In this document: piece after piece, positions 1-64,000 of the stretch | Position numbering within the stretch: the stretch's first letter is position 1 | How the letters are laid out: every line of letters begins with the position of its first letter | DNA from: Eledone cirrhosa | Taxonomy: Eukaryota | Direction: 5' to 3' | Assembly (NCBI GenBank): GCA_964016885.1 | Contig: OZ024743.1 | Coordinates: forward strand, 214,706,001-214,770,000 | Length of the DNA: 64,000 nt | Made by a program: the position numbers and the translations under genes | Notes under the pieces: generated by a model | Told to the model about the DNA's origin: nothing | Database searches by the model: none | Seen by the model: the letters and a program-made list of their open reading frames with translations, nothing else

Positions 1-3000
1 TTCTTATCTATACAGGGGGATCTTTCAAAAGGGTATGTCTTGCTAATAAGTGTTTTTACGGAGGTATCTGGTCTTTCTACTATCTTAATATTGAGTTTAT
101 GTTTATCTTGCGCCCTTCTAAATGTGTAAGCTAATTCACCTCTAGGGGTTGTATCGATGAACATTACACTCTGGTATTTATTTCTATCATACCATGAGTT
201 TATTCTATTAGCCTTATTCCTAGTTCTTTTTATTCTATTCCAAAATTTGCTCCTATACAAGGGGCAGGTCCCATTTGTGTCATTATTTACCATTTTTTCC
301 CCATTTGGTTCTGGCTCCTCTATATACTCTGATTTTATCTCTCTGATTCTAACCAGAGAACTGCATACGGTGGATGAAGTTTTGTATGTGTCTCTCTAGT
401 TCTTCGGGGTTGCAAATGCGGGACACGTTTCTCATCACCCGTACCAAATCCGCAATCAGTATGTTGATTTTGGTATGGTCCGAAACAGCCGAGTTTCGGT
501 GGATCAGATGTTTGGAAGTCATGGGTTTGGCATAATGGGAATGCAGGATTTGTTTTTTGTTATTATAATGGTATCTAACCAGACCTCTGTGTCTAGTACA
601 GGTAATCGATGGTTGAGGTGTTTACTTGGGTAGTCTATAGTAACTGTAATACTCTGGTGGATGGAGTTAGCTATTTGCTGGATGCTTTCCATTGTGTTTT
701 TCTCTAGTTCCTGACTCTTCTCTAGTGGGGGTGTCTTAACTACGATGTTTATATTATCAACGTAGCGGGAGTACATTATCAGGGTTAAGGGTTCTTCTAA
801 TTGTTCTTTAAGTTTAAGTTTACTGTCCCACCATACGCTGAATAAGTTAGCTATGTCGGCTGCAATGCTAACACCAATGGCTGCTCCTTCCTCTTGGGCA
901 TATGTTTTTCCATTAAATTTGAACATATGTTCCTTAACGGTTAGCTTTATGCTGGCCCCTACCGCTTGTGCAATCATTTTCTTCAGTTCATCGTGGTTTT
1001 CGGGTGTCCTTATGGCTCTGGTCCACCCGTTCCATCTATCTCTGTGGGTTTGCTTGGCCAATGAGGTAATGGTAGGTGGTCTGCCTCGTGCTGGTCTTGT
1101 AGGGCACAGGTTGCTAAGGTCATATGTGTCTAGGTAATTATTACTATAGGTAAGTTTAAGTAGGAGTCCCAGCTCACTGGTATCAATCCCACGGAACTCA
1201 ACATTGCTCTTACTGATCATTTCTAAGCATTTCTCCACAGCAAAATCCACGTCAATAGATGGATAGAGGGACACAACATTCATACTACCTATTATGCAGT
1301 TTGTTAGGTCCCTAGATCGGTTACTCTCGCCAATTCTGCTGAGGACGTCCTCCGTGCTGTCACATACATCTGGGAACATTTCAATCATGGGGCGTATGAT
1401 CAGGAAGATGAAGTAGGACAGTCTGTAGTTACTAGCAATGTTAGCTCCACAGACTGGCCGTGTTGGTGGTCCCGTGACAGGGCCACTGCCCGTTTTATAG
1501 TCTTTTCGAAGCCCATACAATGCCGGCACGTCATTGTTCCAGGCCTGGAAGTTGTTGGCAGTCCTTTTGTTGGGCTGCATTATATTCGTCCACATCACCA
1601 TATGGGCATTGAGGGCTTTTTCTCTATCCTCATGCTCCTGTGGTGTTACCTCTCTTGTGTTAGTGATGTGGGGTTGCATTGCCTGGATGTAGTTTGGCAG
1701 GCTGTCAACCGACATTCTGCCAGACTTGTCTGTTAGAAAGCATGCTATCTCTCCATTACGCGAGCGCTGCATGAGCTTACGCAAGCCATTTGCAGATTTT
1801 TCTCCCAGTTGCTGGGCCTCCATTCTATTATGCTTCTTGCTATACTGTTCTATAATATTTCTAAGTTCGGATCTAGCTATACTAAATTGTGCTTCTGTTT
1901 GTTCATCGACCTGCGACGGCAATTGCGTGCGTTTGTTAAATGGTAAAGTCGTGGCGTGGACACGTCGCAGGTCGAACGAGTTATTGGAGGGATTATAAAA
2001 AGTAGAGTTCCATGCTGCTGCTTTATGTGTACTAGTGCTATCGTTATTGTTAGTTGTGTTGTTTCTATTTCTATTTCCACCAACAGCCTCATGGTTGTTT
2101 CTATGTCTCTCATTATTACTCCTGTCTCTTTCCACTGGCTCATTGCTATTATCTACTCTATTTTGTGTGTCTGTGTGTTCGTCTTAGTTATTTTCTTTGT
2201 CCATAGTCTCCCTTCTCCTTTTAATTCTATTACTTTCCCTTATTTCTGTGATTTCTGTGCTACTGTCATTACTTGTTTTCTGTGTCTGTGTGTTTGCTAA
2301 GATTGTGGTGGTGGTGAGAGGCATTGAATGTGTGTGTGTTGTTGTTGTTGATGTGTGCTGTTGTTGATGTGTGTTGTTGTTGTTGTCTCCGTGTGTTGTT
2401 ATTTTTGTTTTTGTATGCGTGTCTGTTGTTGTTGTTTCTGAGTATGTTATTATTGTTGGTGTGTGTGTTGTTGTTATTGTTGTTTGTGTCTGTGTGTCTG
2501 TTGTTGTTGGGATGTGTGTTGTATATGTGTGTGCGTATGTTGTTACTTTTGTTTTTGCTTTTGTTTTTGAGGCTCCAACGTAATTTTGTAAATGATTTTT
2601 CTATTTCTGACAGACAACTAATCATATTTACCTTCTTGAATGTCGCAAATTTCGGTGGTAGAAGTAATACAGATAATTCATCAGGATCTATTGCCGTGTT
2701 GCCGTATATATTTGTGTTGTTCTTGTTGTTGAACTCATCTGTTAATGAGGTGTTGGCCATATTTATACCGTCAATTTTGTCGGGATATCTATTGGTATTC
2801 TCTACAGTATCCTGATTTAGTTTTATCTGCTTAAGCCACCTTAGTTTCTTGTTAAAGTGCTTATCACATTCTTCAGCAATGTATTGTTCTTCAGGACGTA
2901 TAAGGCTTATACATATTAGTTTCTCTCTTGGTGTGGTGATCCTAGTTAATTCTTGTATTAGGTTACGCTTATGTTTTTCTTGATGACTTAATTCTCTACA

Positions 3001-3303
3001 GATCTTATTTTTTATGTTTAGAATTAGTGTTCGTTTTAGCCTATCTGCTTGCTTTTTGGTGAGTTGTAATCTTCTTACGTCGGTGTTGATGGTGTTGTTG
3101 TAAACTCGGGACGAGGCACATTCTTTTATGAAGTGTAGTTGTCGAAATATTATGGTTTTTCGTAGACAACACAACATGTTGGTTTTCAGAATCTTGTTAG
3201 CCTGGCTAAGGCTTACGATATTTCGTTTCTGAATTCTTTTAGCAAGATTCTTTATCTGAAATCGTGTGTTGAAACCGATATTGTTATACTTTGGGAGGGT
3301 CAT
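1..3303 (-). pseudogene. Family A PLE ORF (N-terminus MTLPKYNN, Asn/His-rich insert, RT), disrupted
   Basis: ORFs 2269-3339 and 519-2135 are collinear with the family B protein. Frame breaks are present, and catalytic Asp are changed (GSMNVV, YVDN). Confidence 0.88.
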
Positions 3304-3427
3304 GTAGCCAATAAGAAACACACGCACCAGTTGTTTCACCTGAATTTACTATAATAAATTTATAAATTTTGGAATTTATAAATTTCTGGTTGGTTGGTTC
3401 CACAACCAGGTAGTTGTTTATATATTG

Positions 3428-3468
3428 TCAAAGTTCTTTCGTCACACATTCTGTGACCTCTTCAGTGA
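3428..3468 (-). ncRNA. Minimal type I hammerhead-like motif in family A pLTR
   Basis: Reverse strand reads TCA-CTGAAGA-G-GTCACA-gaatg-TGTGAC-GAAAG-aa-CTT-TGA. Confidence 0.65.
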
Positions 3469-3715
3469 TTGGGGATTCATTCTTTGTTTTTGTGCCTCTC
3501 CTTTGTTCTGTCCTACGCCATTTTGTTTCTGTGTGTGTGGTGTGTGATCAGTCTGCGCATGCGCCACATCCGGATGTCTGTGTGTGTTTATATTCGTTTA
3601 TTTATTTGTTTATTTACATGCTACCGGTTGGTTGTTTGTTCTATGTGCGTGTGTGTTCTCATTTTGTCCTTAATTGTAAGTTATGATGTTGCTGTTCCAC
3701 TCATATTTTCTATTT

Positions 3716-61946: not shown

Positions 61947-62362
61947 GGATTAAATGCTCTGAAATAGCGATATATATGTGAAGATAGACATAGAATATTC
62001 GAAAATATTCTGTATGTTTATAATAAACATTTTGAAGACCTAATCGCTATAGAATAGAATACGTCACGTATTACAATTAGATTCTCGATAAAAGCAAGGG
62101 AAGTAACCTACGCGTTTCATTCTCATTAGAAATCTTCAGGATTACATATCCAGTGCTTTTATCGAGAATGACACAGCTAGAGACTTATAGAATACTTAGC
62201 TGTGTACAGGAACTGGTTTGAAAGAGCGGTTGCCGGTCCGGCAGAAATTAGAAATTGGATTAAATGCTCTGAAATAGCGATATATATGTGATTAGCGATT
62301 AGGTCTTCAAAATGTTTATTATAAACATACAGAATATTTTCGAATATTCTATGTCTATCTTT
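61947..62362 (-). mobile_element. Retrozyme-like element: 310-bp unit with 35-bp terminal redundancy plus inverted arm 62293-62361, in (TA)n
   Basis: 61947-61981 equals 62257-62291; the arm is the reverse complement of 61981-62049. Confidence 0.82.
62103..62145 (-). ncRNA. Minimal type I hammerhead
   Basis: GTAATC-CTGAAGA-T-TTCT-aatg-AGAA-T-GAAAC-gc-GTA-GGTTAC. Confidence 0.8.
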
Positions 62363-62567
62363 TATATATATACATTTATATGTATATATATATATATATA
62401 TTTATATATATATTTATATTTATATATATATATATATATATATATATATATATATATATATATATATATATATATATATATATATATATATATATATATA
62501 TATATATATATTTATATATATGGAGAAGAAGTTTATGAAATGGAAATGCGGGCATACAGAATTTATT

Positions 62568-62684
62568 AGATAACAATTGTTTCTATAGTGTATGGGTTAC
62601 CTATACCTCGCTATTTGAATAATATAACAATATTATCATAAACTGAAGGTACACTGTAAGCAAACACACCATGTCGTCAGACCT
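62568..62684 (-). ncRNA. Type I hammerhead with long stem II (family F)
   Basis: AGGT-CTGACGA-C-ATGGTGTGT...ATACACTAT-A-GAAAC-aatt-GTT-ATCT. Confidence 0.68.
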
Positions 62685-63090
62685 TTGTATTGGAATGACA
62701 TGAAAATATTTTATACACTAGATAAAAGAGAAAGAAGAAGGTAGGAAGAGAAGGGGAAGAGGGAAGTGAGTAAGGTGGAGGGAGTCCTAGCATTTAAGAC
62801 TGTCAGACTAGTAGAGATTGTAAGGAGAGAATGTTTTGGCAGCAGTTAGCTTAATGAGGCGTGTTTGGTTTGGCGGGGGAGGTAAATTCTTCTAGTGGTG
62901 TTGTTCGGACAAAATTCAGTGAATGGGGTCAAAGTGGTACAAGTTACAGACAAGTTATTAGGGCTATTATAGTAGGTCATTTCTAAAGGGGTCCAGAAAA
63001 CAGTGTTTAGTACTATTATTATAGAAAGCCATATCTTGTGTATAAACATATAAAACAGAAATTTGCAAACGGTGGTGTAAAATGGTAACA

Positions 63091-64000
63091 TTATATGCAT
63101 TTAAAAAAAGAAAAATTCGTTTTCAAACGATGGTTCCAGTACAGTGAACGTTCAATTTTGCTGTTCAAAAGTTTGTTTACCGACGTTAAAATGCAGTATA
63201 TCTCCAAATTGCATAATTTGCAGAATCGCTGATTCTGCTTATATGCAGGCGCAGCTGCAATAATTTGCCAATGAAGGGAGAATGCTTGATTGTTCCTCTG
63301 GAGCTGCCAGGCTTTATCGGCGAGGGTTGTTACGGAGCGCATTTTCTCGTGCCTGATCGAAGATCGATGTTGGTATAGGCGAGCTTTGAAAGAAGTTGCG
63401 GTACATCCGACGTAATACCATTTGTTGGTTCCGGAATTTATTGTACATCGGTAGACAATATTGCGTGCTAGGCATTGGTTATTCAGTGGGCACGTACCTG
63501 GTTTGGTGCAGTTACAATTATTGTTATGTTTTGCAGTAGAATCCTGGATAGTTTGGTGGGGTTGTAGTTGCGTGTTAGTGCGTTGTATTTTGTTATGCTG
63601 GGGCGCTGAGTCATTAGGGATGTACTTATTTAGTATTGCTGAGTTGAGTTTTTTAATTAGTTGTTCTATGTTAGGTGCAGTGGAGTATGAGAGTCTAATG
63701 GTGCGCGAGTTAAAGTTTTTATAGTATTTATGTGAAGTTGTAAAATGTTTATTGATTAGTGTATAGAATTGTGAGATAATCTTAGTGCTAATAGAAGTAT
63801 TGTACACGGGGTTATACCATATGTACTCTCTACGTCTGACTCTATTTGCTGGTTTGAACCTATTAGTATGCCTATTGATGTGTGTGTGTGGTGCAATACT
63901 AGTTCGACTTAGATGTGTTTTATTCATAGTACTTATGTGGTTATCGTCTAGATATTCTATTTTCTCTCAGTAACCAGCTTTTCTAAGTGCTTCATTATAA
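63091..64000 (-). CDS. Family F thumb/linker + GIY-YIG (partial)
   Basis: Homologous to the C-termini of families C, D and E. Confidence 0.75.

Follow-up and report, generated by a model that had tools for sequence, protein, structure and literature searches.

Long- and short-ended arms of inverted Penelope-like insertions in (TA)n tracts of the Eledone cirrhosa genome

Penelope-like elements (PLEs) of Eledone cirrhosa, and four non-coding repeats with them, often insert into (TA)n tracts as two oppositely oriented arms joined head to head, one ending at a long end with an extra tail (L) and the other at a short end (S). The stretch in which this footprint was examined (64,000 nucleotides, here called the window) belongs to contig C4 of an assembly of 3.0 Gb and is rich in (TA)n tracts. 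Insertions were resolved by self-alignment with the (TA)n tracts masked and by direct reading. All 16 two-piece insertions listed in a preliminary description of the window exist between (TA)n tracts with oppositely oriented pieces. The description had two 3' ends pointing outward in each; this stands for the 14 that are L+S and the one that is L+L, whereas the right end of the family G insertion is non-canonical and consists of internal sequence. Twelve of the 16 derive from coding PLE families (Hydra-type and Neptune-type), and only four window families are non-coding, namely two candidate hammerhead retrozymes (M and F), a putative tandem short interspersed element (SINE) derived from transfer RNA (tRNA; family E), and a 549-bp unit (J).

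Fixed ends and their pairing

The L and S sites are fixed in each family and lie 31 to 134 nt apart, which is the length of the tail. At most of these sites the element continues with TA, AT, or TAT, giving a short match with the tract; the match is not clear at the long end of E and the short end of F. Exact patterns of TA plus end are matched 22,183 times for the long and 9,363 times for the short end of family C, and 106 and 64 times for the long and short ends of family M. Random arm ends, named in the preliminary description as grounds for doubt, are not what is seen: ends occupy family-fixed positions on many chromosomes, and the reversed controls for C and M gave 0 matches each.

The two ends are strongly paired. 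Among 78 curated two-armed insertions of five families, 72 are L+S, four S+S, and two L+L. They were chosen manually among loci ordered by their similarity to the window copy and comprise 19 of family I (20 regions), 19 of K (30), 17 of M (24), 14 of J (30 loci; 13 are L+S), and nine of F (30 loci; eight are L+S), leaving aside single-armed, interrupted, cut-off, and duplicate loci, the window copies, and the ambiguous M locus L158. A position-ordered check, in which exact end matches were paired by position independently of the similarity ranking, gave 47 L+S pairs out of 49 for C and M combined. The 100 L and 33 S ends of family C in the first 26.9 Mb of C1 yielded 21 LS, one LL, and no SS pairs, where independent choice predicts 37% LS and 57% LL; for family M, 100 of the 106 L ends and all 64 S ends yielded 26 LS, one LL, and no SS. 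Most exact ends stayed unpaired, owing to divergence or single arms. Family E obeys the rule with a more variable S position. Family H has no genome-wide count, since its genome probe returned zero matches, itself included.

The preliminary description called two-sided insertion routine. That fits family I, in which 19 of 20 regions are two-armed, but not family B, in which 10 of 20 regions hold a lone long-ended arm (the B query contained the L end). The ratio of exact S to L ends, a count affected by divergence, is 0.42 in C and 0.60 in M, and single arms with only an S end also occur. Fold-back is therefore not universal: single-armed copies are common, and family L at 53967-56265 is a counter-example within the window.

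Arms of one insertion resemble each other more than they resemble other copies. They are closer to each other than to the median other copy in 19 of 19 genome comparisons (families I and B, overlaps of at least 290 nt, two loci counted twice; shorter overlaps are uninformative), and in family B they differ by 0 to 0.22%, against 0.6 to 1.15% to other copies. One window comparison is opposite, that of the S arm of the third family I copy (I3) with its 3' pseudo-long terminal repeat (pLTR). The inner ends of the two arms also coincide, lying within 30 nt in 11 of 42 cases against 3.2 by permutation. With hotspot pairs excluded, the figure is 6 of 37 against 1.2 expected (p = 0.0006), and these joint stops away from hotspots suggest one broken template.

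Nesting was scored in 78 L+S insertions whose arms could be measured (69 curated ones and nine of family B). In 35 of them the S arm extends further inward but has no tail, which means that neither arm lies within the other; the difference exceeds 30 nt in 29. Since a self-copy must lie within its template, plain self-priming cannot give these 35 cases. The S arm is the longer one in 34 of 51 insertions (p = 0.024; 25 of 39 in I, K, and B plus nine of 12 counted by hand in C), an excess in the direction opposite to that expected if the L arm had served as template. Comparing register unit by unit gave no information in most cases; the informative comparisons place L152, L296, L246, and H in register, L176 and I3 shifted inward, and L287 shifted outward.

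Junctions often carry microhomology or short templated repeats. In family K, with q coordinates counted from the long end in the orientation of the presumed complementary DNA (cDNA), seven of 40 inner ends fall at q425-450, on L and S arms alike, with partner ends elsewhere. Such arm-stop hotspots are family-specific (B q303-305, C q125-135, I q262-276, K q425-450). A U5-CUC run lies just 5' of the B and I hotspots on the RNA, and the C hotspot TCATTT reads like an initiator; hotspots could mark either transcript starts or stalls. Hammerhead cleavage was rejected as their cause because the cut would fall near q138 rather than 275 in I, near q210 rather than 440 in K, and near q90 rather than 130 in C.

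No common fold was found at L or S sites. The motif GAG[C/T] occurs once in each of seven Hydra-type tails (shuffle frequencies of 0.08 to 0.31 each) and also in J, M, and F (0.12 to 0.35); A, B, H, and E lack it, but their base composition mostly leaves no room for it anyway. TTGAG[C/T] stands 52 to 79 nt before L in five of the seven Hydra tails and in J. As a shared tail signal this is a lead, because the motif was widened after the tails had been seen and the boundary of the G tail was assumed.

Priming from both target strands and the alternatives

The reading that both cut strands of the target prime reverse transcription, put forward in the preliminary description, remains the best supported, although in a form that is not of the L1 type: the same RNA stretch is copied from two fixed sites 31 to 134 nt apart. 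We think it somewhat probable that both nicked strands of a (TA)n target prime reverse transcriptase (RT) on the same RNA, at L and at S, and that the resulting cDNA ends are joined. A GIY-YIG nuclease would nick both target strands, two RT active sites would start at S and L, and the L-primed strand would displace the S-primed one. Each synthesis would run until it stalled, met a break, or reached the 5' end of the RNA. End-joining with microhomology or templated inserts would connect the 3' ends of the two cDNAs, and after fill-in the product would be a head-to-head repeat that has a tail on just one side. Where one primer fails, a single arm would be joined to TA. Two primings are supported by the non-nested arms, the L+S pairing, the hotspots common to either arm, and in vitro work, as far as the available text of that study goes (Frangieh et al. 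2024, PMC11167929). The four non-coding repeats likely borrow a PLE enzyme. More broadly, and with slightly less than even confidence, we propose that PLE integration is intrinsically two-ended, with one particle nicking both strands and copying one RNA twice from two fixed start sites, and that retrozymes, the SINE, and the ribozyme-less repeat take the same route through mimicry of the two-site tail.

Several points weigh against priming from both strands of one RNA. No intermediate was observed, and six of the 78 curated insertions are SS or LL. The L+L arms of the second family I copy in the window (I2) share 22 non-majority letters and so are not simply two unrelated copies. Several family C junctions have mirrored letters missing from the longer copies, as self-copying predicts, and fold-back combined with asymmetric deletion of the palindrome centre reproduces the L+S ends, the shared haplotype, the joint stops, and, case by case, the lack of nesting. 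The S arm of I3 matches the upstream pLTR and that of H the far 3' pLTR, both of which are compatible with either model. The template may have been two RNAs of one source locus instead of one. Finally, the available text of PMC11167929 reports no start-site difference between strands in vitro, which leaves the cause of L+S pairing unexplained.

In the first alternative, a single L-primed cDNA folds back and serves as its own template. Its copy ends at S, by stopping or by cleavage, and is joined to the target through TA microhomology; later loss of the palindrome centre makes the arms unequal. This is close to published self-priming (PMC3846280) and to nuclease resolution of the tail (PMC8557442), as described in the available parts of those papers. 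It accounts directly for L+S ends, identical arms, and joint stops, and perfect or near-perfect palindromes are frequent (the window copy of B, L004, L030, and L357); the mirrored junction letters of family C also count in its favour. The instability of long palindromes, which is well established, favours it as well. Yet the central deletion is required in at least 35 of 78 insertions, while near-perfect palindromes of 1.7 to 4 kb persist (L263, L252, and L348). Fold-back predicts no excess of longer S arms and gives no reason why short L and S arms should end at one partner-independent hotspot. It also sits poorly with the array at L287, where S units 1-3 do not have a variant present in L units 2-4 (one locus), and with S being an RT start site in vitro. 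We consider it unlikely, though a serious competitor.

Both strands may instead prime on two separate RNAs from one source locus in one particle, protein asymmetry setting L against S. No strand displacement would be needed, and a shared haplotype would follow if one locus dominates the particle. Two-armed insertions with arms of different families, seven among 146 outward pairs, count in its favour as well. However, the joint stops away from hotspots suggest one broken template, and the mixed-family cases ignore the pairing rule (four of seven are L+L). Four of the seven retain a stub of an older inverted arm, suggesting a second insertion that cut into the first and deleted its end; this account is weaker for I2, given the non-majority letters its arms share. 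Overall the two-RNA scheme appears improbable. The mixed arms are C+J at L039, E+C at L095, H+B at L258, K+B at L273, M+G at L285, A+M at L293, and G+L at L199; L075 was removed from this set as two separate insertions.

It is very unlikely that E, F, J, and M spread without PLE enzymes, as satellites or units like miniature inverted-repeat transposable elements (MITEs) that propagate a fixed palindrome. None of the four matches the ten PLE ends tested, the higher-order periodicity of arrays is compatible with local duplication, and local retrozyme amplification is allowed by the available text of a 2026 preprint (bioRxiv 10.64898/2026.07.22.740005). Against this, each copy has its own junction, and copies are dispersed, TA-anchored, and subject to the same L+S rule (26 of 27 position-ordered pairs in M, and the curated sets of J and F). 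Assembly or library fold-back chimeras, which might be suspected because palindromes and TA tracts are error-prone and no read or contig spans the window's own loci, are largely refuted and hardly credible, since the flanks show no mirroring, each family keeps its own asymmetric ends on different chromosomes, old arms are 5-6% diverged, all four copies of a 10-kb tandem duplication share one fold-back, and Illumina reads from two other samples (same species label) join TA at the S site of C (861 and 748 reads) and of D (1420 and 1503 reads), with opposite-strand joints in D.

Families and other repeats in the window

The preliminary description overstated the diversity of the insertions in calling them mostly unrelated: the 16 belong to 12 families, with C and I present three times each and A and H about 71% identical. 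Its community of non-autonomous RNAs comes down to families E, F, J, and M; B and C, although short fold-backs, represent the 3' ends of PLE families that code for protein. Motifs and architecture identify the coding families as PLEs, with pLTRs, partial tandems, an inverted 5'-truncated copy, and a one-sided tail. Most PLE frames in the window were not recognised by Pfam. Family B has an 887-codon open reading frame (ORF) in other copies, with matches to RVT_1 (E = 2e-11) and GIY-YIG (E = 3e-4, just under the cut-off); family H has a weak RVT_1 match, and family K has no Pfam match, yet YRDD and a GIY-YIG-like motif are present. Motifs of the Hydra clade (RW[K/R], DKT, a CxCX5C linker, and no CCHH) place D, G, I, K, L, and N there, and C via a single locus. 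The linker is found in D, G, I, K, and N, and RxRWR with DKT in I and K; Hydra-type families have a single Cys in the GIY-YIG core. The assignment of L comes from ORFs in L359 and L364, and C runs into a Hydra-type ORF start at L065 only. In families A and H, the linker takes the Neptune/Nematis form CX2-5CxxC and the GIY-YIG core holds two Cys, which fits those clades. In family B, DKG, GxKF, and a CxxC in the core are present, CX2-5CxxC is not matched, and placement in Neptune/Nematis is uncertain. No hammerhead motif was found for family D. The family C pLTR (L048 and L065) has a hammerhead-like fold with the core CUGA-GA, one base under canonical, and a long stem II. A PDB sequence search gave nothing meaningful, and a search of sequencing runs with a family I probe, not extended to M and F, gave no RNA run with a share above 0.10.

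The non-coding families differ in make-up. M is a 310-bp tandem unit whose copies are 98-100% identical, with a minimal type I hammerhead motif that has a U-U mismatch at the base of stem II. Motif scan and arrays show both F and M to combine a non-coding tandem unit with a type I hammerhead, as expected of retrozymes; Rfam listed a hammerhead in neither. A relaxed scan found no type I hammerhead in the units of J and E. The unit of E is about 277 bp, matches RF00005 at 29 bits (equal to the gathering score), has A and B boxes read by eye, and shows a PLE-like tandem and inverted arrangement. BLAST of E, F, J, and M against ten PLE ends gave no match (E <= 0.05). Only the tRNA and one hammerhead were used among 115 Rfam matches, the rest being ignored, since nearly all were microRNA-like or small nucleolar RNA-like below gathering scores and mostly on simple repeats or palindromes. 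In the family M arrays L277, L289, and L293, unit variants recur every ~3, 5, and 6-8 units, a pattern that either local duplication or the copying of a multimeric circle would give.

Among the PLE insertions, family A (Neptune-type, L+S, -819..5817) begins 819 bp outside the window. Its L arm, on the minus strand, has ORF pieces at 3345-519 and an upstream pLTR at 3282-3718, followed by a junction repeat (3715-3776) and the S arm (3759-5817, plus strand), the arms being 94-95% identical. Family B, the 3' end of a young coding PLE (12390-12960), is a near-perfect palindrome with a 39-nt tail (L arm 12390-12695, S arm 12697-12960). Family C forms an L+S pLTR fold-back at 16296-16489, with a hammerhead-like core short of one base, a second L+S fold-back at 27681-27871, and an L arm with an S arm of only ~13 nt at 46317-46414. 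In the Hydra-type family D insertion (16570-18159), neither the S arm (16570-17990, with an endonuclease fragment) nor the L arm (17991-18159) is contained in the other. Family G (Hydra-type, 27963-31528) has a main arm at 27963-31174 with its ORF on the minus strand, then two inverted internal pieces; its right side has no 3' end, the inverted part being q563-265 plus q3164-3111 joined to TA. A 60-bp repeat in 4.9 copies lies in the G 3' untranslated region (UTR) at 28518-28811. Family H (Neptune-type, L+S, 32260-38053) has an L arm with a 3' pLTR, a frameshifted ORF (36490-32839), an upstream partial copy (36388-37350), an S arm (37345-38053), and a 60-nt tail.

The first family I copy is a pLTR fold-back (38608-39065) with a hammerhead motif in both its S arm (38608-38795) and its L arm (38796-39065). 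The exceptional L+L copy I2 spans 39318-44257, its arms differing at 3.1% of sites, and the near-full copy I3 (56710-61612) has an L arm with a frameshifted ORF (60506-58559) and an upstream pLTR (60532-61134), an S arm (61135-61612), and an 87-nt tail. Family K (Hydra-type, 47064-53555) has an 820-codon open frame on the minus strand (50440-52902), an L arm (47064-52901), an S arm (52901-53555), and a 134-nt tail. The single-armed family L insertion is the long 3' UTR of a Hydra-type PLE on the plus strand, with a hammerhead at 56069-56113. At L237-L240 (G000:C4:77.73-77.77 Mb), a ~10-kb tandem duplication in four copies of 99.5% identity carries in each copy the same family L fold-back and other element fragments. 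Family N (Hydra-type, minus strand, 62518 to ~65877), absent from the preliminary list, is L+S with non-nested arms; its S arm starts at 62518, and the junction and L arm lie beyond the window end.

The SINE of family E (18713-19014) has its L arm on the left, its S arm on the right, and a tRNA-like part at 18850-18921. Family F (26642-27618) is an L+S insertion of the non-coding 429-bp tandem unit with the type I hammerhead motif. The non-coding tandem unit of J (44387-45687, L+S, S arm left) has a second inversion inside, with an extra inverted 44-nt piece, and two sense units ending at L. The young retrozyme M (61946-62372) has its L arm at 61946-62291 and its S arm at 62293-62372.

Nine of the 11 inter-TA segments outside the list have no inverted self-match, and the other two have only a weak 64-nt and an 18-nt match. 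A TA-flanked 2.8-kb element at 9581-12369, with a broken ORF (10039-11148, 11679-12158) and no Pfam match, matches unnamed clusters of eukaryotes in the Atlas, most of them from arthropods (0.94-0.95). Its appearance is that of a DNA transposon, with no fold-back and ends only weakly alike. A separate, single-armed short interspersed repeat at 7455-7556, 9341-9548, and 19657-19867, also present inside L364, adjoins a TA tract in one copy and stands outside the fold-back set. A two-copy 204-bp tandem at 5912-6323, beside a TA tract, matched only itself in a genome search. Long TA tracts (0.4-1.4 kb) lie beside young insertions at 38054-38608, 45688-47063, 53556-53966, and 56260-56709; their interruptions are repeated regularly, perhaps through slippage during or after insertion.

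Relation to known systems

The architecture itself is a published PLE trait; the L+S pairing, non-nesting, shared haplotype, and presence of this footprint on non-homologous non-coding repeats were not found in the literature searched. Craig et al. (2021, PMC8557442) describe copies that are inverted and 5'-truncated, a tail at one end, a bias towards (TA)n, and non-autonomous copies related to pLTRs; the available text contains nothing on L+S pairing, non-nesting, or a shared haplotype. The endonuclease-bearing (EN+) PLEs of the Hydra and Neptune clades treated there have the same RT with C-terminal GIY-YIG, pLTRs, partial tandems, (TA)n targeting, and hammerheads; tails are 31-134 nt here against 30-40 in the parts seen. 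As far as the available texts of PMC8557442 and PMC11167929 go, the origin of tandem and inverted PLE insertions and of one-sided tails is called unresolved. The literature searched yielded no two-primer or L+S account and no tRNA-derived SINE mobilised by PLEs; supplements, older subscription papers on Drosophila Penelope, and Repbase notes may state the former.

If correct, two-ended integration would make the one-sided tail and the inverted copy one event rather than accidents, and no passengers without homology would have been shown to bear a Penelope footprint before M, F, J, and E. The L+S rule, the non-nested arms, and the joint stops weigh against the published self-priming model and supply specific predictions for an existing in vitro system. 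The same footprint on M, F, J, and E offers a sequence-independent test for what PLEs mobilise. For annotation, it matters that at least 22,000 ends here belong to a single family and that short palindromes of this kind can easily be misfiled as MITEs or microRNA hairpins.

For that in vitro system, Anolis Poseidon PAc, the available portion of Frangieh et al. reports that both strands are cut and extended, with two internal RT start sites bounding the tail, AT-rich targets, and hammerhead cleavage unneeded, and a dimer is predicted for a relative. There, the start sites are not linked to inverted insertions and the element belongs to another clade than those here; no homology between start site and target is reported, in contrast to the short TA/AT match at most ends here. 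The self-priming model for Penelope of Adineta vaga (Arkhipova et al. 2013, PMC3846280) involves, in the text available, similar head-to-head repeats, palindromic junctions, and an optional tail, as well as mobilisation in trans between pLTRs; it gives nested arms, unlike the 35 of 78 insertions here.

In the twin priming of L1, the second target strand reportedly primes a second cDNA, with microhomology at the head-to-head junction, as Ostertag and Kazazian are said to have proposed in 2001. The internal site at which the second primer anneals varies, and there is no overlap between the pieces. Here, in contrast, the arms overlap, both copying one region from fixed 3' sites, and an L1-like pattern is seen only in G and in a few very short L arms.

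PLE mobilisation of non-LTR retrozymes (LTR, long terminal repeat) has been proposed from co-occurrence and phylogeny, according to the available parts of PMC7229834 (Cervera and de la Pena 2020) and of the 2026 preprint. Families M and F resemble these retrozymes in having tandem units (310 and 429 bp, respectively) that contain a type I hammerhead motif. They differ from the published ones in carrying the PLE footprint itself, with a TA target, an inverted arm, and L+S ends but no detectable PLE homology, and thus lend structural support to PLE-driven retrozyme spread.

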